32,000 nucleotides of DNA from the NCBI RefSeq assembly GCF_007748075.1, contig NZ_CP036280.1, forward strand, positions 300,001 through 332,000, read 5' to 3'. Below, in pieces: positions 1,829 through 26,431 of this stretch. Made by a program: the position numbers and the translations under genes. This DNA is from Mucisphaera calidilacus (lineage in GTDB: Bacteria > Planctomycetota > Phycisphaerae > Phycisphaerales > Phycisphaeraceae). Within the stretch, counting starts at the first letter, position 1. Each line of letters opens with the position of its first letter. The notes under the pieces were generated by a model, which worked only from the letters and a program-made list of their open reading frames with translations, was not told the origin of the DNA and searched no databases.

Positions 1829-2958
1829 GCTGCGTCCCCGATCGCGACGCCCGTCATGGTCTGGTTGACGTGTAGCCCGTTGTACTGCTCGCCATAGGTT
1901 GAGAACCCGACGACGGGTAGGCTGTGGAACGCCCGCCCCGCCTCAGCGAGTGTGCCGTTTTTCTGTGACTCCAGTCGCCGCATGATGCAGTCGAAGGCGA
2001 TGATGATCTGTGGGCTGGAGAGTTGCTCGTTGATGGCATCGACCTGCTGGCGGATGCTCTGTGTGAGGTTGTTGCCGCGTGCGATGCGCATGACGAGTCC
2101 CTCGTCGATGGCGCAGTAGAGGGTGAGGCTGTTGTCGTCGTTAGCGCTCTGGATGGCGCGCATGAAGTATTCGCCGCCGATGGAGAGCATGAGCGGGTTG
2201 GCGGCGAATACGCTGGCGTTGAGCTCTTCGACGTCTCGGCCGATGGCCTTGGCGTACCCGATCGCGGCGGGATACCCGTTGATCTCGATGACGATTCGTT
2301 GGTCGGGGATGGCGCGGGTGATGACCAGCCGCTGGTCTGTGGGTTCGAAGTGGTGCGTGTGGAAGACCCGGTAGGGCAGCGTCGTGTTGACGAGTGCCAG
2401 CGCCGCTGCGTTGCGACAGGCTTCGCCGTTGACGGCCACCCAGGTTTCGCGGAAGCGCATGTTGTCGCCGGCCGATCCGCCCACGAGCGGCTTGTCGCCG
2501 AGGATGTTGTAGAGGGCGGCCGCGACTTGCTCCTCGGCCATGCTCAGGCCGTCGATGAGCAGCATGCCGAAGTCGGGGTTGCTGAGACGGCCGGAGTCGA
2601 TGAATTCTTCCTTGGCACGCAGTGTGTCGAAGGTGCTCAGGTCACGGATGAGATGGGGTTCAAAGCTCAGTTCGTCGGAGGTGATGGCGGTCGCGATGAT
2701 GCCGCCGCGGGTGTAGCCGTGATCGGCCCCGAGTTCGCCTGCGGTGGTGCATCCGATGGAGGGGGCATGGATCGCGTCGTCGAGGAGCGAGGCGACGGTC
2801 TTGAAATCGTAATCGGGGCTGGCGAAGTAAGTGAGTGCGTCGGCGTGTGTGCAGCCGAGCTGATCGATCAGGTGCGCGACGGCGCGTTGGGGGTTCGTTT
2901 CTGAGGTGGTGGCGATGGCCGTTTTCAGTCGAGATGACGCGGTGATGGCTGGAAGCAC
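1825..2958 (-). CDS. FIST-domain sensory protein (FIST_N + FIST_C), co-transcribed with the hybrid kinase
   Basis: 377 aa. It has a FIST-like layout, with 'YFASPDYD' near the N-terminus and 'VVGFSTYGEQ' near the C-terminus. There is a 4-nt ATGA overlap with the downstream kinase gene. Confidence 0.8.
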   Translation of the reverse strand: MLPAITASSRLKTAIATTSETNPQRAVAHLIDQLGCTHADALTYFASPDYDFKTVASLLDDAIHAPSIGCTTAGELGADHGYTRGGIIATAITSDELSFEPHLIRDLSTFDTLRAKEEFIDSGRLSNPDFGMLLIDGLSMAEEQVAAALYNILGDKPLVGGSAGDNMRFRETWVAVNGEACRNAAALALVNTTLPYRVFHTHHFEPTDQRLVITRAIPDQRIVIEINGYPAAIGYAKAIGRDVEELNASVFAANPLMLSIGGEYFMRAIQSANDDNSLTLYCAIDEGLVMRIARGNNLTQSIRQQVDAINEQLSSPQIIIAFDCIMRRLESQKNGTLAEAGRAFHSLPVVGFSTYGEQYNGLHVNQTMTGVAIGDAA

Positions 2959-3145
2959 GGGCCGATCTCCTCGGGGATAGGGCTTCTATCGGCCGTCCTG
3001 GAGACGGAGTGGCCTGGAATCGGGCGTATAGCGTGTTAGAGCTGAGAAGCTATAGGTGGTGTGTGGGTTGAAGCCGTGTGGGTTATGCCGGTTGTGCGGG
3101 TGGTTGCTGTTGCGGGGATGAGGCGGTAGTGTTGTGGGGTTGAAT

Positions 3146-3186
3146 GCGGGTGTAGTTCAGTGGTAGAACGTCAGCTTCCCAAGCTG
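3146..3186 (+). repeat. attL: 41-nt fragment identical to nucleotides 1-41 of tRNA-Gly(CCC) (acceptor 5' strand, D-arm, anticodon arm); truncated tRNA copy
   Basis: gcgggtgtagttcagtggtagaacgtcagcttcccaagctg is identical, 41/41, to 11421-11461. Identity stops abruptly on both sides. No T-arm or acceptor 3' strand follows the left copy. Confidence 0.9.
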
Positions 3187-3222
3187 GTCTATCACTGAAC
3201 GACCCAGCCCGAATATATCAAT

Positions 3223-4140
3223 TCATCCCCGGGAAGCAAGAACCTCGGCGCTTTCTCTACCCCACCCAGCCGTCACAAGCTGCTCCATGCTCTCGATGGC
3301 GTCGATCAGCTCGAGATCGTAGTAGTGCTCTGTCATGTCGCCGCTGGTGTGGCCGAGCAATCTCTGTGCAGCCTCTTTACCGGCCACCCTTCTCGCTATC
3401 GTTGCTGCTGATCTTCGCAGCTGTCCCGGTGTGACCACGTCGATTCCCTGCTTTTTACAGGCTCTGCGCATGACCTGGGCGTACGTGTTGGTCGTGTAGG
3501 GTCCAGCTGGCCGGCGAGGCTTCATGAAGACATACCCCTCTCCGTCTTTTGGCATGAATTCTCTTGCACATAATGGTATTACGATGGTTCGGGTTTTCCC
3601 GTAGTGCTGGGTCTTGTGGTGCTCCGGGATGTAGACCGTCCATCCCTCGATTTTTTGCAGCTGATCGAATCGCATCGCGCAGACTTCACCTGGTCGCATG
3701 CCACAGAGCCACTGAACCATCACCATCGACGCCACCGGTTGCGGACAGATTCTGGCCAGGTGGTGGACTACTTCTCGACCAACGAGCTTTGAAATCGTCC
3801 GCTCTCTGCAGCTGGTTCGTCCGAATCTCAGCGGTTCCATGAGCTTGAGTTGATGAGCTACCTCAGCCGGGATGAGCTCTCGTTGTGCCGCCCACCGGAA
3901 ACACCCACGGACCCACCCGCACCACTGATTCACCGTAGATCGCTGAAGGCCGCGTTCTAAGAGCTTGTCGCGGTACATGCGGAAGGATGCCAGGTTGAAT
4001 CTGTCGGCCCTCAGATCCGATCTGAGTGGACGTAGGGCGATTTCGAGGTTCTTGGCATGCCTCGTAGGAGTCCCGTCACCACGCCGATAGTACTGGTCAG
4101 CATGATCCAGATATCCCCGGATCAGCTCATCGAGCGTCAT
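3223..4140 (-). CDS. Tyrosine recombinase / phage integrase of the prophage
   Basis: Motifs 'MRPGEVCAMR' (Arg I), 'HKTQHYGKTR', 'LRRSAATIA', 'LLGHTSGDMTEHYY' (His/Arg/Tyr nucleophile region). The preferred start is ATG 4140, preceded by ggaggg. The track ORF extends to a GTG at 4239, which remains possible. Confidence 0.85.
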   Translation of the reverse strand: MTLDELIRGYLDHADQYYRRGDGTPTRHAKNLEIALRPLRSDLRADRFNLASFRMYRDKLLERGLQRSTVNQWCGWVRGCFRWAAQRELIPAEVAHQLKLMEPLRFGRTSCRERTISKLVGREVVHHLARICPQPVASMVMVQWLCGMRPGEVCAMRFDQLQKIEGWTVYIPEHHKTQHYGKTRTIVIPLCAREFMPKDGEGYVFMKPRRPAGPYTTNTYAQVMRRACKKQGIDVVTPGQLRRSAATIARRVAGKEAAQRLLGHTSGDMTEHYYDLELIDAIESMEQLVTAGWGRESAEVLASRG

Positions 4141-4261
4141 GGGCCCTCCATCGGTTGTACGGACCGCACGCTTTACGAGTTGGTCCCAACTCGCAGCGTG
4201 CGGTGATGGTGCGGCCGGGGCATTCGCCCTCGGCCGCACGCCCTACGAACGGGTACGGACG

Positions 4262-5689
4262 TCAATCTTCCAGATCTTCCCAGTCGTCGTCGTCCAGATC
4301 GGCATCATCTTCATCGGCAGGGTCGTGGTCGGCCGCCTCGTCGTCCTCTTCGTCGTCGATATCTTCGTCCGCCTCGTCCTCGTCGGCCATGTCCTCGTCT
4401 GCCTCGTCCTCGATCTCTTCATCTTCTTCTTCATCTTCGAACCTGAGTCTCACGAAGATGAAAAACCGCCTATCGTCCTCACGCTCATCGATGCCGCTTG
4501 CAATTGTAGTGCCAGGCAGACGTGGCCCGCCGCTCTGGGTCGTCGATGAATGGAAACCACCGAGTACCGCTACGCCGCCATTCCCCAGGTAGACCTGGGA
4601 CTTGATCCGTCTCGTTGCGATCGTCGGCAGGCCGTCAACGAACTCCCGCACGCTCGACAACTCCGGCTCGATATCCAGACGTGCCTTGCCAGCGTCGACA
4701 CTGTGAGCTCGCACCTTGATCTGTAGGCCCGTCTGGAAGACCTGGGTATCCACATCGGTAACGGTGCCCTCTGGCGAAGCCACGCGTTGGCGAACGTTAA
4801 TCTCGTCGCCCGCTTCCAGCGTCGCCTCGTCGCCCTCGACCAGGTGCAGCGTCACCTGTTCGGCATTGAGTCCCTGCGTCGCCTGCGAGTCTCCAAAGAG
4901 GATGCCCGACAGCGTCGCCTGCAGGGAACTCGTAAAGGTGCCTGTCAGCGGGTCCAGCTGTCCGTCCCATTGAAGTAGCTGGTCCCCGGACAGGGCCATG
5001 TCGATTCCAAGCGATCGCGTCTGCGAGTCGGTGAGCTCGACCATGACGAGCTCAATGTGATATTCACGCCGGCAGCCCGATACCGCCTCGTGAAACCGCC
5101 GGACTCGTGTAATGGTTTCTGCTGTGTCCCTCACCACTATGAGATCTCCTATGCCGTTGGCCCGGACTCGCTCCGAGCCCGCAAGTGAATAGACGTCGAT
5201 CCAGTCCGTCGCGTCTCCCGATGGCACCGCGAAGACCGCGACGTCGTAGTCTCCCTCTGTCGGCTTCCCGACATAGACGTACCCGTCACGTTGGGCCACC
5301 ACGCCACCGCCGCCGCACCGCTCCGCCATTGCCGAAAGGATCCGGTCGATCGGTGTGTTCGTGAACTTGCCTGAGAACTCGAGTCCTCGGCTCTCGTCAT
5401 CGAGGATGACGGTGATGCCCTCATATGCCAGGCATCGAGCCAGATGCCCCATCGGTCCCTCGACTGTGAGACTCACCCGCTTCTGCCTCAGCGGATCCGG
5501 CTTGATCTCTTCCGGCTCCAGCCTCTGCAGTGCTTCCTGATTCGTCGCGTCTGCGATCACCGGCAGCTTGATCGGCTGCCCACTTTGCGGCTGTGGCTTG
5601 TTGTAGATCGGCACCTGTGACGATGACAGGCAACCCGAGAGGCACAGGCACATCAAGATCACGTATGTTCCAGAGCGTTTCACCGTCAT
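4262..5689 (-). CDS. Secretin (phage pIV-like outer-membrane channel) with a lipoprotein signal peptide and a 58-aa poly-acidic C-terminal tail
   Basis: 'MTVKRSGTYVILMCLCLSGC' is a signal peptide plus lipobox. The secretin C-domain signature is 'GLPTIATRRIKSQVYLGNGGVAVLGGF...LPG...RRFFIFVRLR'. It lies immediately downstream of the Zot-like gene, as in Ff gI-gIV. The start is taken as ATG 5689; the track's TTG at 5704 is the alternative. Confidence 0.75.
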   Translation of the reverse strand: MTVKRSGTYVILMCLCLSGCLSSSQVPIYNKPQPQSGQPIKLPVIADATNQEALQRLEPEEIKPDPLRQKRVSLTVEGPMGHLARCLAYEGITVILDDESRGLEFSGKFTNTPIDRILSAMAERCGGGGVVAQRDGYVYVGKPTEGDYDVAVFAVPSGDATDWIDVYSLAGSERVRANGIGDLIVVRDTAETITRVRRFHEAVSGCRREYHIELVMVELTDSQTRSLGIDMALSGDQLLQWDGQLDPLTGTFTSSLQATLSGILFGDSQATQGLNAEQVTLHLVEGDEATLEAGDEINVRQRVASPEGTVTDVDTQVFQTGLQIKVRAHSVDAGKARLDIEPELSSVREFVDGLPTIATRRIKSQVYLGNGGVAVLGGFHSSTTQSGGPRLPGTTIASGIDEREDDRRFFIFVRLRFEDEEEDEEIEDEADEDMADEDEADEDIDDEEDDEAADHDPADEDDADLDDDDWEDLED

Positions 5690-6845
5690 AGTCGCTAATT
5701 CCAAGTAGTGTAAATTGACCGATCGTCTGTCCGACCCTCGTGACCTTGCCGTCGGCCACCACGTACCCGGCGCCGACCACGGTTACCAAGGGTGCTTTGT
5801 ACTCTTGCTCTTTTTCTTTCTTTTGCTTCGTCTGGACCGCGAACCTCTCGCCGCTCGTCACCGGCCTCGTCTGCTTCACCTGGGGCTTTTCAGTCTCACT
5901 GCATCCTCCAGTAATGACTGGTGACACGACTGCACACGCTACGCATGCCGCCGCCGCTAATGACCACCTCTTCCATCGTCCCCTCTTCTTTGTTGGAGTC
6001 CCGCCTACGTTATCTTGCTTTTTGACTGGTTCACCTTCGACTTGTTCGCGTACCTGATTCAACTTGTTCTCCAATCTTCTACGGCCGCCCATGTGTGTAT
6101 ACGAGTCATAACAGCGGAATATCGTTCCCTTGTTCAGTGCCGGAATAAGGACATCGGTGTTGATCGGCTGAACCTGAGCCAGCTTCTGCCCGTCTTTGAC
6201 CATCTCTCCCGGATATTCCTCGTATGCGAAGGCCGCCAGAGGCAGCTTGAGCCCGAACAAGAACGGCAATCGCCGTTTGTCGCTGCAGTGAATCAGCGTC
6301 GCCATGTTCCGCCGCCAAGGGATTGACACCTGCATGCGATCCTGAGTCAGGAGGATGATCCAATGGATGTGATGACGATGCATCGTGGCGTAAGTCAGGA
6401 ACGCGGGGTCTTCGTCCTTCTGGAGACGCTGATCCGCCCATCGATGAAACTCGTCGAGGATGAAGACCGAACCCGGATAGAACCACTGTGCATCCGGCCC
6501 CTCGTAGACGTGCTCCCCTTGCTCCATCTGGAATCGACGCTCAATCTCACCGTGTCCTATACCCTGAGCTTGCAACTTCTCCTTGTACTCGGCGAAAGAT
6601 TCGTTCCTTTTCATGAACCGATAGAAGTGGTTGCGATCGATGCTGTGGACGTATCGTGTGAGCTTCTCGTCGCCGGACTTGATGAGCAGATACTGCCTCA
6701 AGACTCGCATCTTGAGCGGTAGATTCGTGTAGACCGGCCTGCGTTGTCTCAGCACTGCCCGAACCATCAGGTCGACCGCACCGTAAGACTTCCCGCTTCC
6801 CGGAGCCCCTTGCCATATGTCGATGCCGTGCCGCAGGTCGCTCAT
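5421..6845 (-). CDS. Zot / pI-like phage assembly ATPase (N-terminal P-loop NTPase, central TM helix, periplasmic C-terminus)
   Basis: Walker A 'GAPGSGKSYGAV' close to the N-terminus, Walker B 'VFILDEFHRW', TM segment 'WSLAAAACVACAVVSPVITGG'. The start is taken at ATG 6845 ('MSDLRHGIDIW'), which overlaps the upstream stop as TGATG. The 32 extra N-terminal codons in the track would overlap the pVI-like gene. Confidence 0.8.
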   Translation of the reverse strand: MSDLRHGIDIWQGAPGSGKSYGAVDLMVRAVLRQRRPVYTNLPLKMRVLRQYLLIKSGDEKLTRYVHSIDRNHFYRFMKRNESFAEYKEKLQAQGIGHGEIERRFQMEQGEHVYEGPDAQWFYPGSVFILDEFHRWADQRLQKDEDPAFLTYATMHRHHIHWIILLTQDRMQVSIPWRRNMATLIHCSDKRRLPFLFGLKLPLAAFAYEEYPGEMVKDGQKLAQVQPINTDVLIPALNKGTIFRCYDSYTHMGGRRRLENKLNQVREQVEGEPVKKQDNVGGTPTKKRGRWKRWSLAAAACVACAVVSPVITGGCSETEKPQVKQTRPVTSGERFAVQTKQKKEKEQEYKAPLVTVVGAGYVVADGKVTRVGQTIGQFTLLGISDYDGETLWNIRDLDVPVPLGLPVIVTGADLQQATAAKWAADQAAGDRRRDESGSTAEAGAGRDQAGSAEAEAGESHSRGTDGASGSMPGI

Positions 6846-7117
6846 CAGCCGCCGCCGATTGCAGGAATGAAGGTGATCAGCCAACGAGCCGCACGTATCG
6901 CGTACTTCGCCGTGAGGCCCGCCGCCAACAATGCCAGGCATTCATTCAGAGGCAGCACCTGATTCCAGATGCCCCAATACTGAGAGACAAATGTGAACAT
7001 TGAAACGAGATCGAGATTCTCGAAGTCAATCGGGATGTACTCTTCCAACAGCGTGAGGGTGAACTCTTTGAGTTGCTCCCACGCGTCTAGGATGGCGTCG
7101 AGGATGGCCTGAAACAT
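6845..7117 (-). CDS. Small hydrophobic virion/assembly protein, pVI-like by position and size
   Basis: 90 aa with hydrophobic segments ('MFTFVSQYWGIWNQVLPL', 'LALLAAGLTAKYAI', 'WLITFIPAIGGG'). TGATG overlaps occur at both ends. Its position between the putative adsorption protein and pI matches Ff gVI. Confidence 0.5.
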   Translation of the reverse strand: MFQAILDAILDAWEQLKEFTLTLLEEYIPIDFENLDLVSMFTFVSQYWGIWNQVLPLNECLALLAAGLTAKYAIRAARWLITFIPAIGGG

Positions 7118-7896
7118 CAGTTACGCCTCGTCTCGTTAATCGGCATCATCGCCGCTTGCACGCCTGCAAGACCTATCATGATGGCGTTGAACATCGTCTG
7201 GATCGGCGTACCGACGTACCAATCCCAATCAATCGTCGTGGTGACCGGCGTACCGACAGCCTGCATTCCCGGCAGACCCTGAATCACAATATCCCAGTCC
7301 CCGCTGGATGTTGCGATGTCGTAGTTGATCTCGGGTATCTCGATGGCCTCGGGTGCGTCCCCGAACTGATATCCGCCGCTTGTCCCGCTTGTCGGTGGAG
7401 CCGTCTCCTCCCCCGCGACGTAGGGCAGTGAATCCCAGTTGAGACGCACTTCGTCCACCACTAATCGGATGCCGTTGTGCATGTTGATCTCATTAGATGT
7501 CACACTTGGCGATGAGAGCAGGAAGTTTGTTGGATTCGGATTTCCCCGAGCGTAGACGTCCCATATCGGCAGATATCCGATGTAGCTCGCAGGCTCTATG
7601 ACCTCCACTTTGATGAATGAGTCGGTACGTGAGAATTGAATTGTTACTCTCGTCCAGTGCGTGACGTTCTCAAGCCCCTCTGGCATTGGCTTGAACCAGA
7701 ACGTACTCGTATTGCCGAATACTGGTATCTCTATCTGATTATAGCTATAGCCACTCACCCGGCCATCAAACACACAGCCTCCGGACGCCGCAGAATCAAG
7801 CACGATGTGCGGGTCGTTCACCGTATTGAGATTAATGATCGTTGCAAATGCTTGGTTCGCCGATATCACGATGGCCAGGAGAATCATGTATCTCAT
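7117..7896 (-). CDS. Secreted minor coat / adsorption protein candidate (pIII-like by position)
   Basis: The internal start ATG 7896 gives 'MRYMILLAIVISANQAFA', a signal peptide. The C-terminus has a hydrophobic anchor, 'MFNAIMIGLAGVQAAMMPI'. ATGA overlaps the upstream stop. The 67 extra codons in the track overlap the upstream gene. Confidence 0.6.
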   Translation of the reverse strand: MRYMILLAIVISANQAFATIINLNTVNDPHIVLDSAASGGCVFDGRVSGYSYNQIEIPVFGNTSTFWFKPMPEGLENVTHWTRVTIQFSRTDSFIKVEVIEPASYIGYLPIWDVYARGNPNPTNFLLSSPSVTSNEINMHNGIRLVVDEVRLNWDSLPYVAGEETAPPTSGTSGGYQFGDAPEAIEIPEINYDIATSSGDWDIVIQGLPGMQAVGTPVTTTIDWDWYVGTPIQTMFNAIMIGLAGVQAAMMPINETRRN

Positions 7897-8363
7897 ACGT
7901 GCAGACTCCTCTTGCTCCACGAGGCGTAACTGAATCCCCACAAACCCATACCGATCAGGAATGCGAGCAGGGCATCGGTGATCGACTCGTCGGTGTTCCG
8001 CTCGCCTGGCGTATAGAAACCCGGCGTCCCGATCACCACCGTTTCCGTTGGCAGATCCTTCACGTTGAAGGTCCCCATCCATCCCTCTCCAGTCCACCGC
8101 ATATCCGGTGTGATGTCACCGTTGGCGTTGACCGCCCACAGCGTCCCGCCGTTACCGTCGCCGTACTGGAGCACTTGTACGGTGAACCCGTCGAGTGTAA
8201 AGGTCAGGCTGTTGGCGTCGGGCATGTGTCCGCCCACGACGTCGACGATGGCACCGTTGGATATGTGCCTGCATTCCAAAGGCAAACCCACCGTGTCCGA
8301 TGGGTCCGCCGCTGCGATCATCGGGAATGCTACCCCGCAGATAAGCACTCCCAACCAGATCAC
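7893..8363 (-). CDS. Secreted, C-terminally TM-anchored virion protein candidate (156 aa, GTG start)
   Basis: The GTG at 8363 overlaps the TGA stop of the major-coat-like gene (ATGTGA). The N-terminus '(M)IWLGVLICGVAFPMIAAA' is signal-like. The C-terminus 'DALLAFLIGMGLWGFSYASWSKRSLHV' is a TM helix plus a basic tail. The longer track ORF (to 8771) overlaps two better-supported genes. Confidence 0.5.
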   Translation of the reverse strand: MIWLGVLICGVAFPMIAAADPSDTVGLPLECRHISNGAIVDVVGGHMPDANSLTFTLDGFTVQVLQYGDGNGGTLWAVNANGDITPDMRWTGEGWMGTFNVKDLPTETVVIGTPGFYTPGERNTDESITDALLAFLIGMGLWGFSYASWSKRSLHV

Positions 8364-8596
8364 ATCTTTGCGAAGATCCAGTTGTAGGTCTTCTTTGCGA
8401 TCCTGAATCCGCCGCCGAGAGCGAATGCCGCACCAATCGCCACACCACCGAGAGCCAACGCACCCATCGCCAGGTCGCTCGGCGTGATGACCGTGTCGAG
8501 GCTCGAGAGATCCGGAGGCGTGTACTGAGCCTGTGCCGACTGCAGGAAGGACAGGACCGAGCAGCACCCGGCCAACGCGAGAACCTTGAGATTCAT
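8360..8596 (-). CDS. Major coat protein candidate (pVIII-like): signal peptide, short ectodomain, TM helix, basic C-terminus
   Basis: 78 aa: 'MNLKVLALAGCCSVLSFLQSAQA|QYTPPDLSSLDTVITPSDLAMGALALGGVAIGAAFALGGGFRIAKKTYNWIFAKM'. A strong SD (aaaggag) lies 7 nt upstream. The size and architecture are typical of inovirus major coat proteins. Confidence 0.7.
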   Translation of the reverse strand: MNLKVLALAGCCSVLSFLQSAQAQYTPPDLSSLDTVITPSDLAMGALALGGVAIGAAFALGGGFRIAKKTYNWIFAKM

Positions 8597-8641
8597 TTGA
8601 ATCTCCTTTCTGCCGGATAATCCGGCTTTGTTTTGTGGGGT

Positions 8642-8758
8642 CTAGCGGCCCCACGAGATTGACAGCTGTATCGCACACATTCGGTACATCCAGAACCAAT
8701 ACGTCGCGGTCGCGGCTATCCCGTAACCGAGAATCACGTACCACGCTATCGAAGTCAT
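8642..8758 (-). CDS. 38-aa hydrophobic mini-protein (pVII/pIX-like by size and position); below the ORF-track length cut-off
   Basis: ATG at 8758 is preceded by gagga (tGAGGAtgtcgcATG) immediately after the upstream stop. It translates to 'MTSIAWYVILGYGIAATATYWFWMYRMCAIQLSISWGR*' with a stop at 8642-8644. It fills an otherwise unexplained 171-nt gap in a tightly packed operon. Confidence 0.45.
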   Translation of the reverse strand: MTSIAWYVILGYGIAATATYWFWMYRMCAIQLSISWGR

Positions 8759-8767
8759 GCGACATCC

Positions 8768-9391
8768 TCACACCCGCTTGAATAGGTAGTTGTAGAACTT
8801 GCGAGCAACGACGAAACCGGCGAGTAGGGCAATCATGACCCCGAAGGCCACGCCTAGCGATGCCAATGCACCACCTGCAAGCACCTTCGGCTCGATGACC
8901 TTATAGAATCCGACCTCGTCCTCACCACCCGACCCTCCACCGCCTGGAACTTCACCCCCCGGGTCTTCGCCACCTGATCCGCCGCCCGGTGTGCTGCCCG
9001 GCTCAATGTCGCCATTGAAACCAGTCGGTGCCTGTGTGATGTTGGATGTCGGCGTGTACCAGCTTACGAAGTCCCAAGCCGACCCATCCCAAGAAACCTC
9101 AATCTGATGCGATCCGTCCTCGATTGCTGTGGCACCCATCGACCACTGCCTTACGTCGCCGCCCGTCTCGACGGCCGCCCTGAATGTTGGGCCAGGCATT
9201 TCTGGAGAGACTGAGGAGAAGAGAGCCGCCATCTTATTCCCGATAGGGGCGTACAGGTCCGCTTCGACCCACTGTGTGCCGTCCCAGATCTCGACTGGCT
9301 GGTAGACGTCCTGAACGGTGACACCGATATCAGCCGCCTGAGCCGACGACACGAGCCACAACGACATAACCAGCGTTATCAGACGCATCAT
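8768..9391 (-). CDS. Secreted protein with a ~130-aa ectodomain, Gly-rich linker and a major-coat-like C-terminal TM anchor
   Basis: Signal peptide 'MMRLITLVMSLWLVSSAQA'. Linker 'GSTPGGGSGGEDPGGEVPGGGGSGGEDE'. The C-terminus 'LAGGALASLGVAFGVMIALLAGFVVARKFYNYLFKRV' parallels the 78-aa coat protein tail 'AKKTYNWIFAKM'. The ATGA overlaps the Rep stop. Confidence 0.65.
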   Translation of the reverse strand: MMRLITLVMSLWLVSSAQAADIGVTVQDVYQPVEIWDGTQWVEADLYAPIGNKMAALFSSVSPEMPGPTFRAAVETGGDVRQWSMGATAIEDGSHQIEVSWDGSAWDFVSWYTPTSNITQAPTGFNGDIEPGSTPGGGSGGEDPGGEVPGGGGSGGEDEVGFYKVIEPKVLAGGALASLGVAFGVMIALLAGFVVARKFYNYLFKRV

Positions 9392-10614
9392 GCAACGACC
9401 CCTCCCCTTAGCTGTGGGTTCACAAGCTCGTATCCGTCACCCATCCATTTCGCTGCGATGTGGACGTAGGGCAGATCTGCGAATCGGTCCGCGTACCTGT
9501 CTGTCAGGTCGTCGGGTTCCTTGATGCCGTACATCGAGCCAAAACAGCCGCGGAGGCGTCGACCGCTCAGAGCAAGCTCTGCATGCCAGTTGTCCGGGAT
9601 GGTGATGTCACCGAACTTCAACGGGTACTTCAGCACCTCGGCCAGGTCGTCGGCGATGGCCTCATCGGATGGGTTGTTGGTGTGCTCGAATGAGTGAAAC
9701 GGCCGGAAGTCTGCAATGAACGAATCACCCGTGATGCTCTCCCACTCGCGGCGGATGGAGTTCTGGTCCGTGTCGCCCGTGACCAGGACGGCAGCGTGTA
9801 GGTGCGGGTGCCAACCCTTAGAGCCCTTGCCCCTCTTGATCTCGATCGCGTAGGTGCCTCCTGAAAATGCGGCCGCGAAGGTCCATGGCTCCCTGCGCCT
9901 GCGCTTGCCTTCAGCCCATGCGAGGTAGGCACGACGCTTGTCGGTAAGGTGCCGCCAGTTCTCCACGAGATGGTTAAATCGCTCTGTGAGATCAGGACCG
10001 TTCCTCACCGTCAGCGTCAGGAGAGCCAAGTAGGCCGATGAGTGATCGGCTTGAGCTTCATCCAGGGCATGCCGAACTCGTGGGGCGTTGTCCTGGAGTG
10101 ACCGTGAGCAGCGACGCAGGGCACAAAACGGGCAGAGCCTGTACCGCTGGCAGAACTTCGCCGACGCCAGGAGAAGCGATTCGTCCTCGGAATAGGCCGC
10201 GAACTCTAGCCACGTGCCGCACTGCTCGAGCTCATAGGCGTAGTTAGTCCGGTCCTTCGCATCGAACGAGCCCGCCCGGGTGTCGATCGTCCGGAGGTAC
10301 TCGGCCATCTCGACGGCCCTGGCGTGTGCCGGGGTGTAGCGTGAAATTCTTTTGACGACCCCTGCGAAATCGTCGTCCCGCTCTTCCTCAGGACCGCCCA
10401 CGACTTGTTTCCATGTATCAAGCAGTGGACGCGTGCACGCGTGCGCACGCGTTGCAAACTGCGTGCCAGGAGACTCGGGGGCCTCCGCGACCGGCCCCCG
10501 AACCCCCGCCGCCACGCCCCCCCTTTGGGGTGCAGAGCCAACGACAAGACCCCCGCCGACGCCGGGACCAGCGTCGGTGAGGGGGCCTGTTTTTGTTGCG
10601 TCCGTGCTGCTCAT
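9388..10614 (-). CDS. Rolling-circle replication initiator, HUH endonuclease of the pC194/pUB110 (Rep_1) type
   Basis: RCR motif I 'ALLTLTVRN', motif II (HUH) 'GWHPHLHAAVLV', motif III 'AEVLKYPLKF' (catalytic Tyr). There is a Cys cluster, 'CQRYRLCPFCALRRC'. The first ~60 aa are low-complexity Gly/Ala/Pro, so the true start may lie further downstream. Confidence 0.75.
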   Translation of the reverse strand: MSSTDATKTGPLTDAGPGVGGGLVVGSAPQRGGVAAGVRGPVAEAPESPGTQFATRAHACTRPLLDTWKQVVGGPEEERDDDFAGVVKRISRYTPAHARAVEMAEYLRTIDTRAGSFDAKDRTNYAYELEQCGTWLEFAAYSEDESLLLASAKFCQRYRLCPFCALRRCSRSLQDNAPRVRHALDEAQADHSSAYLALLTLTVRNGPDLTERFNHLVENWRHLTDKRRAYLAWAEGKRRRREPWTFAAAFSGGTYAIEIKRGKGSKGWHPHLHAAVLVTGDTDQNSIRREWESITGDSFIADFRPFHSFEHTNNPSDEAIADDLAEVLKYPLKFGDITIPDNWHAELALSGRRLRGCFGSMYGIKEPDDLTDRYADRFADLPYVHIAAKWMGDGYELVNPQLRGGVVA

Positions 10615-10634
10615 CCTTGAGCAACTCCTAGTAA

Positions 10635-10895
10635 TCAGTTGCTGCAGAATTCAATCGCACGCCTGTGAACTTCGGTGTACATGTCGCCGTAGATGCAGAG
10701 CTTGCCGGGGAAGGTCTCCCCGGTGTGGAGCTCGATCTTGCCCGTCTCGCGGTTGAGCAGGCCGCACGACATGACCGGCTTGCCGTGCTCGAAGATGAGC
10801 ACGTGCACAACATCGAAGACGTCGGAGTTTTCATACTCCTTGCGTAACGCCTCGTATGCCCTGCGGGAGACAGATGAGTCGATGCAGTGGACCAT
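10635..10895 (-). CDS. Hypothetical 86-aa phage protein (replication/regulation module)
   Basis: Internal ATG 10895 ('MVHCIDSSVSRRAYEALRKEYENSDVFDVVHVLIFEHGKPV...') lies 4 nt after the upstream stop, preceded by a G-rich SD. The upstream part of the 172-aa track ORF overlaps the better-looking 90-aa gene in another frame. Confidence 0.5.
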   Translation of the reverse strand: MVHCIDSSVSRRAYEALRKEYENSDVFDVVHVLIFEHGKPVMSCGLLNRETGKIELHTGETFPGKLCIYGDMYTEVHRRAIEFCSN

Positions 10896-10899
10896 GACC

Positions 10900-11172
10900 T
10901 TAGGCCACCCCCTTTGACGGATCGATCTTGTCCACGATCCAGATCGTGTCGCCCCGGTTGTCGACCTGGGGCCACGCCTCAACCCTGGCAGGCTTGCCCA
11001 TGAGGTTCCTGGCTCGGTCGATGTTCTCGACGTCGCCGTCGCCAAAGCGCAGTGACATGGCGCCGCCCATGTAGGCGACTTCCAGTTGATGAGCCCAGAT
11101 GCGGCTCTTGTCCTTGGTCCGCAACTCGCGGACGTCCTTGACCTGAACTTCACCGATCAGCTTGATTCCCAT
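10900..11172 (-). CDS. Small (90 aa) beta-rich protein; candidate ssDNA-binding protein (gene V-like) by size and position
   Basis: It is the first gene of the phage operon, preceded by ggaaggg. The sequence is 'MGIKLIGEVQVKDVRELRTKDKSRIWAHQLEVAYMGGAMSLRFGDGD...'. The size matches inovirus G5P-type proteins. No diagnostic motif was recognised, so the functional call is positional. Confidence 0.4.
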   Translation of the reverse strand: MGIKLIGEVQVKDVRELRTKDKSRIWAHQLEVAYMGGAMSLRFGDGDVENIDRARNLMGKPARVEAWPQVDNRGDTIWIVDKIDPSKGVA

Positions 11173-11187
11173 GATTGAAACCCTTCC

Positions 11188-11228
11188 GGGTCAGATCACG
11201 GGCGCATAAGTGCTTCATCGTCTGACCC
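11188..11228 (-). promoter_or_regulatory. Inverted repeat in the phage intergenic region (candidate origin / packaging hairpin / leader structure)
   Basis: gggtcaga (11188-11195) and tctgaccc (11221-11228) form an 8-bp stem around a 25-nt loop. It sits just upstream of the first phage gene's SD. Further TGACC/GGTCA copies occur at ~11235, ~11266 and ~11279. Confidence 0.35.
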
Positions 11229-11420
11229 TTAGACGGTCAAATGATGAAACGGACCCCAGGTGCAGTGACCAGGTGCGTTGACCCGTCGTGCTGGTTCTGG
11301 TTATGCGTTCTCGATACACTGGGTAAGGCTCCGCTCTCTACAGCGGGGTCCGATCGTCTGCCCGAGACCGTCACGTTGCGGGCGAGACGAACCCGACGGA
11401 GATTACGCCTCCGCCGGGAC

Positions 11421-11461
11421 GCGGGTGTAGTTCAGTGGTAGAACGTCAGCTTCCCAAGCTG
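11421..11461 (+). repeat. attR: right copy of the 41-nt direct repeat (inside the intact tRNA)
   Basis: Identical, 41/41, to 3146-3186. Confidence 0.9.
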
Positions 11462-11491
11462 AATGTCGTGGGTTCGAGTCCCATCACCCGC
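11421..11491 (+). tRNA. tRNA-Gly (anticodon CCC), intact; its first 41 nt form attR of the prophage
   Basis: Cloverleaf read by hand: acceptor gcgggtg/cacccgc, D-arm gttc-agtggta-gaac, anticodon arm tcagc-ttCCCaa-gctga, variable atgtc, T-arm gtggg-ttcgagt-cccat. CCA is not encoded. Confidence 0.9.
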
Positions 11492-11606
11492 TTTGGAAGA
11501 TAAATCAAGTTCCGATCGCTAGTTAGCGAACTTACCCTCGTCGGGCGGTGCGGCTCTGCAAGCCTCGAAAAAGTGGTAGTTACCACTTTGGCTGTGGAGA
11601 CCGAAC

Positions 11607-12887
11607 ATGACCCGATCAGCACCTGAGAATCTTGTTCATTCTGACCTGCCGACGCCCCGTGTCCCGAGCTATCGCCTGCACAAACCCAGCGGTCAGGCGG
11701 TGGTCCGGATCAACGGCAAGGACTTCTATCTGGGGATCCACGGAACCGACGGGAGCCGCCGGGCCTACGACCGGTTGCTCGCCGAGTGGTTCGCCGGTCA
11801 CCGCCACACGCCGAGCCCGACCCGCAAGGCGGCAGCCCAAGAGCTGGCGGTCTGCGAGCTCGTGCTGGCCTACCTGCGTTTTGCCCAGACCTACTACGTC
11901 AAGAACGGCCGGGTCACCGGGGAGTACGCCAACATGCGCGACGCGGCGCGCCCAATGGTTCGGCTCTTCGGCGATGTCCCGGTACACGCCTTCGGGCCGG
12001 TGTCGCTTAAGGCGGTCCGGCAGGCGATGGTCGATGAGGGGCTTTCCCGCCGGGTCGTCAACGGCCGGGTCAACCGCATCCGCCGGATCTTCCGCTGGGG
12101 CGTCGAGGATCAGTTGGTCGATCCGCTCACGCTGCAGGCTCTGGAGGCGGTCGGCTCGCTCAAGAAAGGCCGCTGCTCGGCCCGCGAGTTGCCGCCGGTC
12201 CAGCCGGTGGATCTGGCTGTTGTCCAGGCGACCAAGCAGCAGGTCTGCCCTCAGATCGCCGCAATGATCGACCTGCAGCTGATCACCGGGATGAGGCCGG
12301 GCGAGGTGGTGCTCATGCGGACCCGCGACGTGGACCTGACCACTGATCACTGGACCTACACCCCCGAGTCGCACAAGACCGAGCACCACGGCCGCCGTCG
12401 TGTGATCTTCCTCGGACCCAGGGCTCAGGAGGTGCTCGGGCCTTGGCTTAGGACGCGTCAAGAGGCCTATCTGTTCAGCCCGCAGGAGGTGATGGCGACT
12501 GTCAGGGCGAGGATCCGCAAGCACGCCGGGAAGAAAGCACCACGGCGAAAGAGGTCCAGCGGTCCGCCGCGTGAACCCCGCGAGCACTACACCACCTCCA
12601 GCTACGCCCGGGCGATCCAGCGTGGTTGTGATCGGGCCTTCCCGGTTCCCGAGGATCAGCTGGAGCGGCTCAACGAGCAGCAGCAGGCCGATGCAGTACG
12701 TCGGTGGCGCGATCAGCACCGCTGGTCGCCGAATCAGCTTCGTCACAACGCTGCGACGCTGCTGCGCAAGCAGTTTGGCATCGAGGCGGCCCGGGTGATC
12801 CTCGGCCACAGCTCTGCGACGACGACCGAGGTCTACGCCGAGCGCGACCTGGGTAAGGCGGCGGAGGTGATGCGAGACGTGGGCTAA
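11607..12887 (+). CDS. Tyrosine recombinase / integrase of a second element, immediately 3' of the tRNA
   Basis: 426 aa with 'MRPGEVVLMR', 'HKTEHHGRRR', 'LRHNAATLL', 'ILGHSSATTTEVYA'. The motif set matches the prophage integrase, indicating paralogy. This is the classic tRNA-then-integrase island arrangement. Confidence 0.85.
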   Translation: MTRSAPENLVHSDLPTPRVPSYRLHKPSGQAVVRINGKDFYLGIHGTDGSRRAYDRLLAEWFAGHRHTPSPTRKAAAQELAVCELVLAYLRFAQTYYVKNGRVTGEYANMRDAARPMVRLFGDVPVHAFGPVSLKAVRQAMVDEGLSRRVVNGRVNRIRRIFRWGVEDQLVDPLTLQALEAVGSLKKGRCSARELPPVQPVDLAVVQATKQQVCPQIAAMIDLQLITGMRPGEVVLMRTRDVDLTTDHWTYTPESHKTEHHGRRRVIFLGPRAQEVLGPWLRTRQEAYLFSPQEVMATVRARIRKHAGKKAPRRKRSSGPPREPREHYTTSSYARAIQRGCDRAFPVPEDQLERLNEQQQADAVRRWRDQHRWSPNQLRHNAATLLRKQFGIEAARVILGHSSATTTEVYAERDLGKAAEVMRDVG

Positions 12888-12937: not shown

Positions 12938-13351
12938 ATGACAACGCCACCTGACTATCTCGCCGTGACGAACTACTACGCCGAGTCGGACCCGATGAGG
13001 CTGCTGACGCTGCGTGAGACTGATGCATCTGCGCGGATCCGCGGCTCCCTGCTGGCTGCTGCGGCACGCATCGGTCTCGCCAGCGAGCGGTGCATCGAGC
13101 TGGATGAGCAGATCACCCAGACCCAGCAGCAGCTGCGCAACGCACCCAGCTGGCTGGGCACCGGCGAGCTCATGAGCCTGGAGCAGCGTGTCCTTTCGCT
13201 ACAGGCCGAGCTCGCGACCGAGCGTCGTGAGCTCTGGAAAGACCTTCAGCCTCTGGCTGAGGCGGCCCGCGATGCCGGTGTCGAGCGACAGCGACGCGGC
13301 TTTCTTCGCGAGATGATCCGCGGGCTTGAAGAGGTGACCGATGAACCATGA
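12938..13351 (+). CDS. Hypothetical coiled-coil protein (island cargo)
   Basis: 137 aa, helical and Gln/Glu/Leu-rich ('LDEQITQTQQQLRN...LEQRVLSLQAELATERRELW'). Its stop overlaps the start of the next ORF (ATGA at 13348-13351). Confidence 0.5.
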   Translation: MTTPPDYLAVTNYYAESDPMRLLTLRETDASARIRGSLLAAAARIGLASERCIELDEQITQTQQQLRNAPSWLGTGELMSLEQRVLSLQAELATERRELWKDLQPLAEAARDAGVERQRRGFLREMIRGLEEVTDEP

Positions 13352-13890
13352 GACGCATCGAGTCGCCCTTCGCCGATCTGGTTGCCGTGGACAAGCGGGC
13401 TCGTCGGCTCGATCTGGTCTGGCGACAAGCCAGGCCCGAGGAGCGCGTCGAGCTCGACATCGTCGCCGAGGTGATGCGTTCACGCTTTACCCACAGCCGT
13501 TCGGCCCTCCTGAGTCCCCCAACGCGGGATGAGGCCGACGGCCCGCTTCGGCTCGGCCGTATTCATCACGGCCGACAGGAGCTTGGTTATCTGGGTCTGC
13601 ACAAGCACGAACTGATGCAGGACGCCCTGTTCACCGGACGTTCGGGGTCGGGCAAGAGCACGGCGTGCCTGAACCTGATGATCAAACTGATCGATCAGGA
13701 TGTGCCATGGACGGTGATCGAGATCAAGCAGGGCCTCAGTCCGAAGCTCGGGCGTGGCTTCTACAGCGCCCTCGAAGACCTCGAGCCGGACCGTGCGTTC
13801 GTGGTGTACGCAGGCCGGGAGCGCTACCCCCTTGCGGATAGTGTCGAGGCGATCGGTCTCGCGGAGATCTGCTCCGAGCTCACATCCTGA
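13348..13890 (+). pseudogene. Truncated/chimeric P-loop NTPase remnant
   Basis: Walker A 'FTGRSGSGKSTACLNLMIKLI' is followed ~25 aa later by 'SPKLG...RAFVVYAGRERYPLADSVEAIGLAEI'. That second segment resembles only the extreme C-terminus of DUF4143-type AAA ATPases. No Walker B or catalytic core lies between them. An AT-richer non-coding stretch follows. Confidence 0.4.
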
Positions 13891-14542
13891 TGCCGGTCAC
13901 GGACTACCACCAGCTGCTCATGAGCCTAAGTCGGTGAGGGATCGGTGAATCATGACTTACCGCCGCTGGAATGACCGTGACCGTCAGCGGGCAGAGCTTG
14001 TGGTCAGGCTGGAGCTTGGCATTATGCTTTCAAAATGATCTATACGTCTATCCATCCTGGTTTCTCTATCAAGCGGGTGATTCCAAACAAACGCTGAACT
14101 GTCGCCGAAAACAAGAACCAAGAATGAATCAGGATTCGGGGAGAGGCGCAGTTCGGACACCGGGCTGCTGGTCTACCGGAAACTTGATAAGACGGTGAAG
14201 CTGACGCAGAAGGCTGCCAGAGTCGCTTGCCAGCCTGAAATCGTGGCTTTTTAGCATCGCGAGGCTTGCGTTCGCCTCGTCTGTGCGATAATATTTGCTC
14301 GAAATCGCCTAGGCAGCGTATCCGGGCATCCCAAATGGCAAAGGTCAGCCAAAACAGCTGAAGGCTCCGTCGTTATCAACTCCAGAAAAACGACTGAGTG
14401 TCGTACAAGTGTTTGGCGTGAGATGAAATATTAACTCCTAACTTTCAACCAACATATAAGGACTACTAAGGATATTGATGCTGCATCGGCACTGTGTGCT
14501 GCGTGTATATGGTGCCGATCCGAGTTTACAGGAGAATCAACC

Positions 14543-17341: not shown

Positions 17342-17608
17342 ATGAAGAAGTCGAGATTTACCGAGGAGCAGATCGCGTTCGCACTCCGCCAGGCCGAGGG
17401 TGGTACGCCGGTGAAGGAGGTCTGCCGGAAGCTGGGTGTGCATGAGCAGACCTTCTACCGGTGGAAGAAGCAGTTCGCGGGTATGGGCGTGGCGGAGTTG
17501 CGCAAGCTCAAGCAGCTAGAGGAAGAGAACTCGAAGCTCAAGCGACTGGTGGCCGACCTGAGCCTGGATCGTCAGATCCTGCAGGACGCCCTCAAGGGAA
17601 AGCTCTAA
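17342..17608 (+). CDS. IS3-family transposase OrfA (HTH + leucine zipper)
   Basis: 'MKKSRFTEEQIAFALRQAEGGTPVKEVCRKLGVHEQTFYRWKKQFAGMGVAELRKLKQLEEENSKLKRLVADLSLDRQIL' is a canonical IS3/IS407-group OrfA. The track ORF starts at an upstream TTG (17321). Confidence 0.85.
   Translation: MKKSRFTEEQIAFALRQAEGGTPVKEVCRKLGVHEQTFYRWKKQFAGMGVAELRKLKQLEEENSKLKRLVADLSLDRQILQDALKGKL
17596..17602 (+). promoter_or_regulatory. Programmed -1 ribosomal frameshift heptamer G GGA AAG (OrfA to OrfAB)
   Basis: The heptamer fits X XXY YYZ in the orfA frame (codons aaG GGA AAG). A -1 slip continues as 'GKALKPDHRRAMANRTQLKY...', which is the orfB frame of the 17461-18195 track ORF. The orfA stop lies 4 nt downstream. 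Confidence 0.6.
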
Positions 17609-18159: not shown

Positions 18160-18250
18160 AAACTATGCAAGCCGGGTCATGCAGCGGTGAGATGACCGCG
18201 AGACCATGATCCGGTTGCATTGATCCCCGAATCTTCGAAGGAGTCTTGTC

Positions 18251-26152: not shown

Positions 26153-26431
26153 CGTTAGCAGGCTAGCGACATGCGAGGCGAGCGCCAAGAGAATTCTCAT
26201 TAAATGATTCAATTATCCTCCGCAGCGTATCTCATGCGTGAGCAACCCTTTGACGCAACTGTGAGCAAGCGATCCGAGCCCCCGCATTCCATTCTTTCAT
26301 TGACTTGGGTAATGACCGCGTTACCTTGATGAACAGTCCGATCGGAATTTTGCGTCTGGCACGGGACACCAAAACCCGAAAGAACGACAGCACCTGGTCT
26401 TACCAACAGGCGACGCACCTTGAAGAGCAGC

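Follow-up and report, generated by a model that had tools for sequence, protein, structure and literature searches.

Does the gene block enclosed by a direct repeat in the chromosome of Mucisphaera calidilacus represent a filamentous phage, and how was it inserted there? The block was analysed within a window of 32,000 nucleotides, to which all coordinates refer. The original prediction had proposed a planctomycete-like host, and this was borne out by the Zot protein of the block, which is 100% identical to an NCBI protein of Mucisphaera calidilacus, a member of the Phycisphaerae, from a 3.49-Mb genome. The block is very probably an 8,275-nt inovirus (filamentous ssDNA phage) integrated in tRNA-Gly(CCC). 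The phage is of an ordinary kind in a little-studied host, and its unusual part is the integration module.

The perfect 41-nt direct repeat that had been proposed was recovered: its two copies, at 3146-3186 and 11421-11461, match at every position and start 8275 nt apart. A chance origin is implausible because this is a perfect 41-mer within 32 kb. The sole tRNA found in the window by ARAGORN is tRNA-Gly(CCC) at 11421-11492 on the plus strand, so that the right copy of the repeat coincides exactly with nt 1-41 of this gene, comprising the acceptor 5' arm, the D arm, the anticodon stem-loop and four of the five nucleotides of the 3' stem arm. The two attachment features are as follows.

3146..3186, plus strand: attL, a displaced copy of tRNA-Gly(CCC) nt 1-41 (5' half), perfect direct repeat
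11421..11492, plus strand: intact tRNA-Gly(CCC), called by ARAGORN; attR is its first 41 nt (11421-11461)

All coding between the repeats lies on the minus strand and amounts to 12 co-oriented genes instead of the 13 originally counted, with ATGA/GTGA-type overlaps at several junctions. The G+C content falls from about 0.63-0.65 on either side to 0.54-0.60 within the element. Integrase, secretin, Zot and Rep_1 were called by the Pfam curated gathering scores, with PHROG profiles as a second source. All four proposed families scored above their gathering scores, and no Pfam coat family was matched. The replication and integration features are listed first.

11173..11420, minus strand: large intergenic region, with no convincing ORF
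10900..11172, minus strand: 90-aa OB-fold protein (AF2 and Foldseek), candidate ssDNA-binding protein (gV analogue)
10635..10895, minus strand: ORF for an 86-aa protein, between the ssb-like gene and rep
9388..10614, minus strand: rolling-circle Rep of the Rep_1 (pC194/pUB110) family, 408 aa (PF01446)
3223..4140, minus strand: tyrosine integrase Int1, 305 aa by the NCBI start, with an open frame extending upstream as far as a GTG at 4239

The Rep protein matched PF01446 with 55.8 bits (gathering score 33.2) and is 30-41% identical to Rep proteins of related contigs (L003-L008 and L019). It carries an HUH metal-binding motif, HPHLH, at residues 269-273 and an ExxxY motif, E326-VLK-Y330, in which E326 and Y330 are probably the catalytic residues by analogy with pC194 RepA. 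The 90-aa protein was assigned from its AF2 model, a single-sequence prediction of moderate confidence (pLDDT 76.5) with the topology b1-b2-b3-a-b4-b5. Foldseek matched it to OB folds that bind nucleic acids, among them SSBs from bacteria, mitochondria and plasmids (E 3e-4 to 1e-2, TM about 0.6). The suggested ssDNA-binding-like protein is thus supported as a candidate by its modelled OB fold, and no sequence family was matched in Pfam or PHROGs. The 86-aa protein had no match in PHROGs or PADLOC, and its AF2 model (pLDDT 62) gave no meaningful fold match. Int1 matched PF00589 with 56.0 bits (cut-off 27.1) and phrog_1 with E 5e-39, and is 100% identical to protein P0025. The conserved Arg, Lys, Arg and His and the nucleophilic Tyr (R149, K176, R242, H264, Y273) are invariant in 14 clade members. 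Its gene closes the phage operon with its stop codon 36 nt from the left repeat, so that the integrase does lie next to the att site as first described.

In the circular form, 11173-11420, the 41-nt core and 3187-3222 would together make a non-coding stretch of 325 nt, which presumably houses the origin, the packaging signal, promoters and the attP arms. The phage strand of the intergenic region folds into several hairpins (-55.3 kcal/mol, z = -2.0). The genes for structure and assembly occupy the remainder of the element.

8768..9391, minus strand: 207-aa protein, pIII-like in design (signal peptide, ectodomain, Gly-rich linker, TM segment 177-195)
8642..8758, minus strand: hydrophobic peptide of 38 aa that resembles pVII/pIX in size and position (ORF only)
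8360..8596, minus strand: candidate major coat protein, 78 aa (features, position, conservation)
7893..8363, minus strand: 156-aa protein, candidate minor coat protein; its GTG start overlaps the stop codon of the coat gene
7117..7896, minus strand: 259-aa protein, candidate minor coat or adsorption protein (ATGA overlap, sequence features)
6845..7117, minus strand: 90-aa hydrophobic protein in the pVI position, directly before Zot
5421..6845, minus strand: Zot/pI morphogenesis ATPase, 474 aa (PF05707); start agrees with NCBI protein P0001
4262..5689, minus strand: pIV-type secretin, 475 aa if started at the ATG at 5689, with a TTG at 5704 as an alternative start

The assembly module gave clear family matches. 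Zot scored 54.9 bits against PF05707 (cut-off 20.3) and E 6e-21 against phrog_197 ("Zot-like"), and has a Walker A motif, GAPGSGKS, and a single TM helix at residues 296-312. The outer-membrane secretin, whose gene overlaps that of Zot by 269 nt, scored 52.9 bits against PF00263 (27.5) and matched phrog_1012, "protein IV of M13". Its signal sequence is of the lipoprotein type (LSGC), and 48 of the 75 residues in its C-terminal tail are D or E. The protein is 32-41% identical to the secretins of relatives.

The major coat, pVI-like and pIII-like/adsorption proteins are candidates, assigned from their features, their position and how they are conserved in the clade; homology to characterised inovirus proteins was found neither for the coat nor for the pVI-like and adsorption proteins. 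The 78-aa protein (RIAKKTYNWIFAKM) has a signal peptide ending in AQA, an acidic N-terminus, a Gly/Ala-rich helix and a basic C-terminus. In relatives, seven homologues are found at this position, with 36-55% identity over the alignment and GGG..KK invariant. It matched phrog_2186, "virion structural protein", weakly (E 0.003) and no Pfam coat family, and a profile from the eight coat homologues found nothing among PDB sequences at E <= 10. The pVIII-like coat originally suggested therefore stands on its features, position and clade conservation, and homology to known coat families was not found. The C-terminal 43 aa of the 207-aa protein are homologous to the C-terminus of this candidate coat, with a local alignment score of 97 against 27.6 +/- 4.6 (maximum 66) in 500 shuffles. 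No family match was obtained for the 38-aa peptide, at whose position three relatives (L001, L003, L004) carry genes of 36-40 aa, nor in Pfam or PHROGs for the 259-aa and pVI-position proteins. The 259-aa protein begins with a signal-like segment, ends in a hydrophobic anchor and is weakly conserved among relatives. The 156-aa protein has hydrophobic segments at both termini and shares 28-31% identity with its positional counterparts in relatives, and the pVI-position protein is 30-44% identical to its counterparts in L003, L006, L007 and L008.

About 20 relatives with 40-60% Zot identity and the same gene order were found in Phycisphaerae/Planctomycetota MAGs and metagenomes. In L001-L008 and L009-L021 the synteny runs through two small genes, Rep, small TM proteins and the coat, then genes of about 160, 280 and 90 aa, Zot and the secretin, with or without int. 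This conservation of order and lengths argues that no gene is truncated, in agreement with the first impression that none was obviously disrupted. One relative (L008; 11,886 nt) has a 30-nt terminal overlap and is therefore a circular contig. Zot gave no tblastn match in 50,697 deposited phage genomes, and relatives in IMG/VR reached at most about 31% Zot identity; judged by these sequences, the Phycisphaerae clade (40-60% identity) is not represented in IMG/VR.

The lack of a Zot match among deposited phages could also fit a rolling-circle plasmid that integrates, or a domesticated module for secretion or filament formation, sharing Zot and secretin with inoviruses and making no virions. Rep_1 is mainly a plasmid family, and the coat-like proteins are without homology to known inovirus coats. 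However, the full inovirus grammar is present (OB-fold protein, Rep, four to six small secreted/TM proteins, Zot with TM helix, secretin), the co-oriented 8.3-kb unit is conserved on contigs of 8-12 kb, the PHROG matches are M13 pIV and Zot-like phage proteins, and Rep_1 and Rep_trans modules interchange among the relatives as in known inoviruses. A plasmid or module of this kind is thus very unlikely. An inovirus is the preferred reading: the 8,275-nt circle, with an order kept in relatives, follows the compact (5-15 kb), one-strand plan of replication, structure and assembly.

For such a phage the following life cycle is proposed. Int1 would excise the element via recombination of both 41-nt repeats, and Rep would nick an origin in the 325-nt intergenic region to start rolling-circle synthesis. 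The single strand would be coated by the OB-fold protein, the coat proteins would accumulate in the inner membrane, and the Zot ATPase and the phage secretin would extrude filaments with no lysis. The gene content suggests that the prophage is self-sufficient and intact. It might instead be cryptic, whole in sequence and fixed in the chromosome, for example through a lost regulator, a dead origin or an inactive integrase. No repressor, regulator or excisionase was recognised in the element, the whole of 2900-11700 yielded no sigma-70-like promoter, and the strain's genome papers mention neither plasmid nor phage, hence not the element. On the other hand, the 41-nt repeats have kept their identity, none of the 12 genes is interrupted, gene lengths match those in relatives, overlaps are coupled, and a circular contig exists within the clade. 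We consider a cryptic state unlikely, while giving it appreciable weight.

An element that targets a tRNA gene is expected to bear the 3' part, an assumption often built into island finding. In the canonical arrangement the attP block is this 3' portion, and the host promoter and 5' part are undisturbed, whereas here the block is nt 1-41. The attachment site is the mirror image of the usual tRNA-3'-half site. The attP directly downstream of int is the tRNA 5' half, antisense to the phage genes, and the intact tRNA of the lysogen is therefore composed of a phage 5' half and a host 3' half, with phage DNA preceding it. The promoter for this tRNA would then have to be supplied by the phage intergenic region. 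To the left of attL lies the original host upstream region, so that the int end of the prophage retains the host's own tRNA 5' half and promoter region. ARAGORN called no tRNA gene at attL; attL plus the adjoining phage DNA (3146-3231) scored 31.2 bits against Rfam tRNA (gathering score 29), and a T arm is absent from this segment. The crossover is likely to fall inside the 7-nt anticodon loop, with the anticodon-stem inverted repeat on either side.

The same geometry was found in relatives of Int1. The Int1 clade (39-62% identity) provides the final gene of five other inovirus contigs (L119, L120, L121, L124 and L135), and in four of these five members an antisense tRNA 5' half (Gly-CCC, Gly-UCC or Ala-UGC) lies 24-205 nt downstream of int. 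It is Ala-UGC in L119 (nt 1-41, aligned to a Phycisphaeraceae tRNA-Ala), Gly-CCC in L121/L122/L123 (three samples whose contigs end inside the tRNA half) and in L124, and Gly-UCC in L135. In the four lineages with a clear boundary, the identity blocks stop shortly after the anticodon loop on its 3' side, at nt 38-42, as a crossover within the loop would allow. L119 has a terminal overlap of only 18 nt and, instead of being a circle, could be a prophage with a contig break in each repeat. The fifth member, L120, differs in having a tRNA or tmRNA 3' end, and no 5' half, about 195 nt downstream of int. L019 carries an Int1-like gene with a tRNA-Gly(CCC) 1.7 kb off, and no repeat was detectable there. 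More distant integrases are associated with ordinary sites, namely a sense tRNA 3' half downstream of int in L008 and the 3' end of tRNA-Ala GGC in L001. These facts suggest that a 5'-half attP characterises the integrase clade and is no accident of one locus.

A second tyrosine integrase, Int2 (11607-12887, plus strand; 31% identical), lies outside the element, 115 nt downstream of the tRNA, and was missing from the original prediction. The 41-nt repeat might accordingly belong to Int2 and its island, or be a local duplication or assembly artefact, and not be the att of the element. A homologous integrase does adjoin the tRNA in the classical island position, and the tRNA is evidently a hot spot. 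Yet the repeat encloses precisely the inovirus genes, Int2 has no downstream copy of the 3' tRNA part, antisense 5' halves accompany Int1-type genes in four independent metagenomic lineages without Int2, and the genome is a closed 3.49-Mb replicon. We regard this explanation as extremely unlikely and keep the repeat as the att of the inovirus.

The 5'-half sites may stem from a whole phage-borne tRNA copy with a decayed 3' half. In support of this origin, L124 retains T-arm remnants besides a perfect acceptor stem (Rfam tRNA 44.9 bits, degenerate T arm, not called by ARAGORN). More broadly, though with somewhat less than even confidence, we propose an undescribed Phycisphaerae-associated inovirus lineage whose dedicated integrase clade systematically uses mirror-image tRNA sites, the phage supplying the 5' half and the promoter. 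If so, the displaced host tRNA promoter would fire antisense into int and could act as a switch dependent on the integration state. An integrase clade with the 5' half shows the tRNA-3'-part rule to be a preference, not a constraint, and 5'-half integration raises the question of tRNA expression from phage DNA. Characterised viruses are almost absent for Planctomycetota, whose unusual envelope lends interest to its crossing by a filamentous phage. Since the phage is apparently complete and self-exporting, and its host is a publicly held type strain with a closed genome, induction, host range, receptor use and envelope crossing are directly testable. If active in strain Pan265, it would provide the first tractable filamentous phage-host pair for Planctomycetota.

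Among known systems, Ff (M13/fd/f1) and other secretin-encoding inoviruses share with the prophage a small co-oriented genome with one large intergenic region. The Ff-like order claimed at the outset holds for the modules of replication (HUH Rep and small ssDNA-binding-type protein), structure (small signal-peptide/TM proteins) and assembly (pI/Zot with TM helix, pIV). It does not hold in detail, since the ssb gene stands before rep and the gene of the pIII-like protein before that of the coat. The prophage further differs from Ff in lacking sequence-level similarity (tblastn, deposited phages), in a Rep of the Rep_1/pC194 family instead of the gpII type, in a secretin with a lipoprotein signal and long acidic tail, and in integrating by its own tyrosine integrase, while Ff is episomal. 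Pf4/Pf1-like prophages of Pseudomonas are, like this prophage, temperate inoviruses with a tyrosine integrase and insertion at a glycine tRNA. Pf phages use a host secretin and, as generally described, the tRNA 3' side, whereas this prophage has its own secretin and the 5' half. The anticodon-loop ("class I") tRNA att sites that Williams is said to have defined in 2002 reportedly resemble the present one in a block ending at the anticodon stem, in a symmetric stem around a 7-nt loop as the likely overlap region, and in the use of several tRNA identities by one integrase clade. Class I blocks are said to reach the tRNA 3' end, while the block of the prophage reaches the 5' end as a mirror image.

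It was fair to call filamentous phages very poorly characterised in such hosts, although five predicted inoviruses from Planctomycetes are listed in Supplementary Table 4 of Roux et al. 2019 (PMC6813254), the example being an anammox planctomycete (KSU-1). Those predictions draw on evidence like that used here, namely a pI-like gene, genome features of inoviruses and att repeats in a tRNA, and the present host differs in being an axenic type strain with a closed genome. The one "chronic phage" reported for an isolate of the Phycisphaerae forms hexagonal particles, has 21.9 kb and is no inovirus. For integration at the 5' end, a precedent is found in the pelagiphages HTVC021P/022P/201P/121P, which integrate at the 5' end of tRNA-Cys, and for which it has been experimentally shown that the phage-borne 5' part completes the gene (bioRxiv 10.1101/410191). 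Those phages are tailed podoviruses of SAR11, whereas here 5' integration goes with an integrase clade specific to inoviruses, and the block of identity in the prophage spans nt 1 exactly through the anticodon stem-loop.

The 41-nt perfect direct repeat reported to bracket the phage genes was present at 3146-3186 and 11421-11461 (core GCGGGTGTAGTTCAGTGGTAGAACGTCAGCTTCCCAAGCTG), and all coding sequence between the two copies is located on the minus strand. The co-orientation of the genes was retained, while refinement of the gene models reduced their number from 13 in the original prediction to 12:

10900-11172, minus strand, OB-fold protein, 90 aa
10635-10895, minus strand, orfB, 86 aa
9388-10614, minus strand, Rep, 408 aa
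8768-9391, minus strand, p207, 207 aa
8642-8758, minus strand, p38, 38 aa
8360-8596, minus strand, candidate major coat protein, 78 aa
7893-8363, minus strand, pX, 156 aa, GTG start
7117-7896, minus strand, pY, 259 aa
6845-7117, minus strand, p90, 90 aa
5421-6845, minus strand, Zot, 474 aa
4262-5689, minus strand, secretin, 475 aa
3223-4140, minus strand, tyrosine integrase (Int1), 305 aa

Consecutive structural genes overlap by 1-4 nt, and the G+C content of the element is slightly below that of its flanks.

Four prophage proteins passed the curated Pfam cut-offs in profile searches, namely the tyrosine integrase (PF00589, 56 bits), the secretin (PF00263, 52.9 bits), Zot/pI (PF05707, 54.9 bits) and Rep (Rep_1, PF01446, 55.8 bits), and PHROGs matches to 'assembly protein IV of M13' and 'Zot-like' were also obtained. 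The assignment of Rep to the HUH type was confirmed by this match together with an HPHLH motif at 269-273; E326-x3-Y330 is present as well, the Glu/Tyr arrangement known from pC194 RepA. As expected for a pI-like ATPase with a transmembrane (TM) helix, Zot contains the Walker A motif GAPGSGKS and a single TM helix. The secretin starts with a lipoprotein-type signal and lipobox (…LSGC) and ends in an extremely acidic tail (D or E at 48 of 75 residues), and the first 269 nt of its gene overlap, in another frame, the region encoding the low-complexity C-terminus of Zot. Secretin-frame similarity likewise extends back into Zot in the related contigs L002 and L003. The product of the first gene, previously described as a small ssDNA-binding-like protein, gave a model with one helix and a barrel of five strands (pLDDT 76.5), with matches to SSBs and to other OB folds that bind nucleic acids. 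For orfB there was no match in PHROGs or PADLOC, and its AF2 model was of low confidence with meaningless fold matches. No defence cargo was found in the prophage by PADLOC. Defence-like genes encoding TIR (CAP12-PCTIR, ThsB_TIR), SLATT, SRAP and DUF2726 domains are located between secretin and integrase in two contigs with related integrases (L121, 6409-9958; L135, 3541-6570).

The 78-aa protein was kept as the candidate major coat protein based on its sequence features and its conservation in seven homologues; homology to coat proteins was not found when its profile was compared with PDB and Pfam. Three other proteins, p207, pX and pY, share a layout with a signal-like segment at the N-terminus and a hydrophobic anchor at the C-terminus. 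[quoted passage not shown] With these parts, p207 is reminiscent of a natural display or adsorption protein with a coat-like anchor. Two coat-like matches were also observed in the relatives L001, L006 and L007.

The proposed planctomycete host was confirmed by the Zot protein, for which NCBI has an identical sequence from Mucisphaera calidilacus (strain Pan265, class Phycisphaerae; 3,486,541-bp genome). No phage is mentioned in the description of Pan265 or in a later class-wide genome paper. Relatives of Zot comprised 17 proteins at 40-61% identity and further ones at about 30%, from Phycisphaerae, Phycisphaeraceae, Tepidisphaeraceae and other Planctomycetota MAGs and from metagenomes; their contigs were found by a profile scan, a single-protein scan of genome contigs having given none. 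The gene order of the prophage is repeated in these contigs, which have recognisable counterparts of its Rep, coat, pX, pY, p90, Zot and secretin. Their Rep is mostly of the Rep_1 type, with Rep_trans in L001 and L119, an exchange like the Rep module swapping of known inoviruses. One relative (L008, 11,886 nt) has a terminal overlap of 30 nt and is therefore a circular assembly. No match to Zot was found in deposited phage genomes by tblastn, and its IMG/VR relatives reach at most about 31% identity. Because five inoviruses had already been predicted in Planctomycetes (Roux et al. 2019, PMC6813254), a predicted host from this phylum is not a novelty. In a Phycisphaerae isolate a 'chronic phage' has been reported, which is a hexagonal particle of 21.9 kb. 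The element belongs to an inovirus lineage that is associated with Phycisphaerae and has no member among the deposited phages.

L004, an integrase-less relative from a Phycisphaerae MAG, lies between the two copies of an imperfect 230-nt direct repeat (84%; 3455-3684 and 13106-13335, 9.65 kb apart), and L003 is found at the same host locus, adjoining tRNA-synt_1c, DUF192 and SpoIIE genes, which suggests a different integration route without a phage integrase. In the complete genome of Planctomycetes bacterium syqfu (L015, 7089-11210), Zot similarity is limited to residues 3-140 and two secretin-like stretches are on opposite strands; this locus may be what is left of an inovirus after degradation or rearrangement.

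The right repeat copy is the start of tRNA-Gly(CCC) (11421-11492, plus strand), the sole tRNA called by ARAGORN in the window. Read against this gene, the repeat is exactly nt 1-41 and takes in the acceptor 5' arm and the D arm, then the anticodon stem (TCAGC) with its loop (TTCCCAA) and the GCTG of the 3' stem arm; the base right after the left copy is G, vs A in the tRNA. Elements that integrate into tRNA genes usually bring the 3' part of the tRNA with them, whereas in this prophage it is the 5' half. Along the phage strand, the integrase stop is followed after 36 nt by the anticodon stem-loop, D arm and acceptor arm in antisense, a 248-nt intergenic region and the first gene, in agreement with the claim that the integrase adjoins the attachment site. 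In the integrated state, the intact tRNA has phage DNA directly upstream, and the original upstream region of the host tRNA (2959-3145) is joined to the 41-nt fragment, facing the integrase 3' end. A sigma-70 scan of the element gave zero sites, and thus no promoter could be proposed for the tRNA or the phage. Integration at the 5' end of a tRNA has a precedent in several pelagiphages, which integrate at tRNA-Cys and supply its 5' part (bioRxiv 10.1101/410191).

To see whether the 5'-half site is accidental, homologues of Int1 were searched. The Int1 clade (39-62% identity) is encoded by the final gene of inovirus contigs, after Zot and secretin; its profile had no match in IMG/VR and only one reasonably close locus, L124, in JGI metagenomes. 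Downstream of the integrase in L119, GGGGCGGTAACTCAATTGGGAGAGTGCCAGCTTTGCAAGCTG is the antisense 5' half (nt 1-41) of a tRNA-Ala(UGC), which aligns with a Phycisphaeraceae tRNA-Ala. The 5' part of Gly(CCC) follows the integrase in L121, L122 and L123, contigs from three samples that break within it, and that of Gly(UCC) is at the contig end of L135. In L124 the 5' half of Gly(CCC) continues into a degenerate T arm and an acceptor strand of perfect complementarity, giving a nearly complete pseudo-tRNA (3714-3784, minus strand) with 44.9 bits against Rfam tRNA and no ARAGORN call. In the four lineages with a clear boundary (the window, L119, L121-123 and L124), tRNA identity ends at nt 38-42, directly 3' of the anticodon loop; L135 is tRNA-like to about the same point, judged without a host tRNA for comparison. 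The arrangement mirrors that of an anticodon-loop site, from which we infer that the crossover in these sites occurs in the loop.

The attL copy with adjacent phage DNA (3146-3231, plus strand) scored 31.2 bits against Rfam tRNA, above the gathering score though lacking a T arm, because an acceptor-like CATCCCC persists at 3225-3231. Together with the L124 pseudo-tRNA, this suggests that attP descended from a complete phage-borne tRNA copy with a decaying 3' half. Automated pipelines may annotate both sequences as tRNAs. An Rfam scan of four relatives found no tRNA halves, which Rfam detects only with a small search space or a remaining pseudo-acceptor.

More distant integrases of the same phage clade use the usual tRNA part: L008 has a sense tRNA 3' half after the integrase, and L001 is at the 3' end of tRNA-Ala(GGC). 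In L120, a contig of the Int1 clade, the integrase is followed by the 3' end of a tRNA or tmRNA rather than by a 5' half. In L019 (Planctomycetota MAG; listed features at 3672-3836, 13596-14477 and 16200-16272), an inovirus carries an Int1-like integrase; a fragment of an Int2-like gene lies at the opposite end and a tRNA-Gly(CCC) 1.7 kb beyond the integrase, with no att repeat above shuffle level. The set of parts is that of the window, arranged differently.

Downstream of the tRNA, at a distance of 115 nt, there is a second tyrosine integrase, Int2 (11607-12887, plus strand, 426 aa), with 31% identity to Int1. Beyond Int2 are small ORFs, a truncated P-loop/STAND-like gene, genes of the NmrA and MFS types, and two transposases:

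17461-18195, IS3-type transposase
18251-19297, IS110-type transposase

G+C dips occur at 13.5-15 kb and 16.5-18 kb in this region (to about 19300), and no downstream copy of the tRNA 3' part of at least 11 nt delimits it. This region, which does not belong to the phage, is probably a decayed island at the classical position 3' of a tRNA. A 95-nt direct repeat (26618-26712 and 30375-30469, 77% identity) lies within two 380-aa ORFs (26420-27562 and 30186-31328), probably paralogues, and has no relation to the prophage.

Both the observation and the interpretation of the original prediction hold, and since the host is a cultured type strain, any activity of the prophage would be easily testable. 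The architecture is otherwise that of a standard inovirus, with three unusual traits, namely the acidic tail of a secretin that is a lipoprotein, the homology of a pIII-like protein's anchor to the candidate major coat protein, and a clade-wide 5'-half tRNA attachment site.
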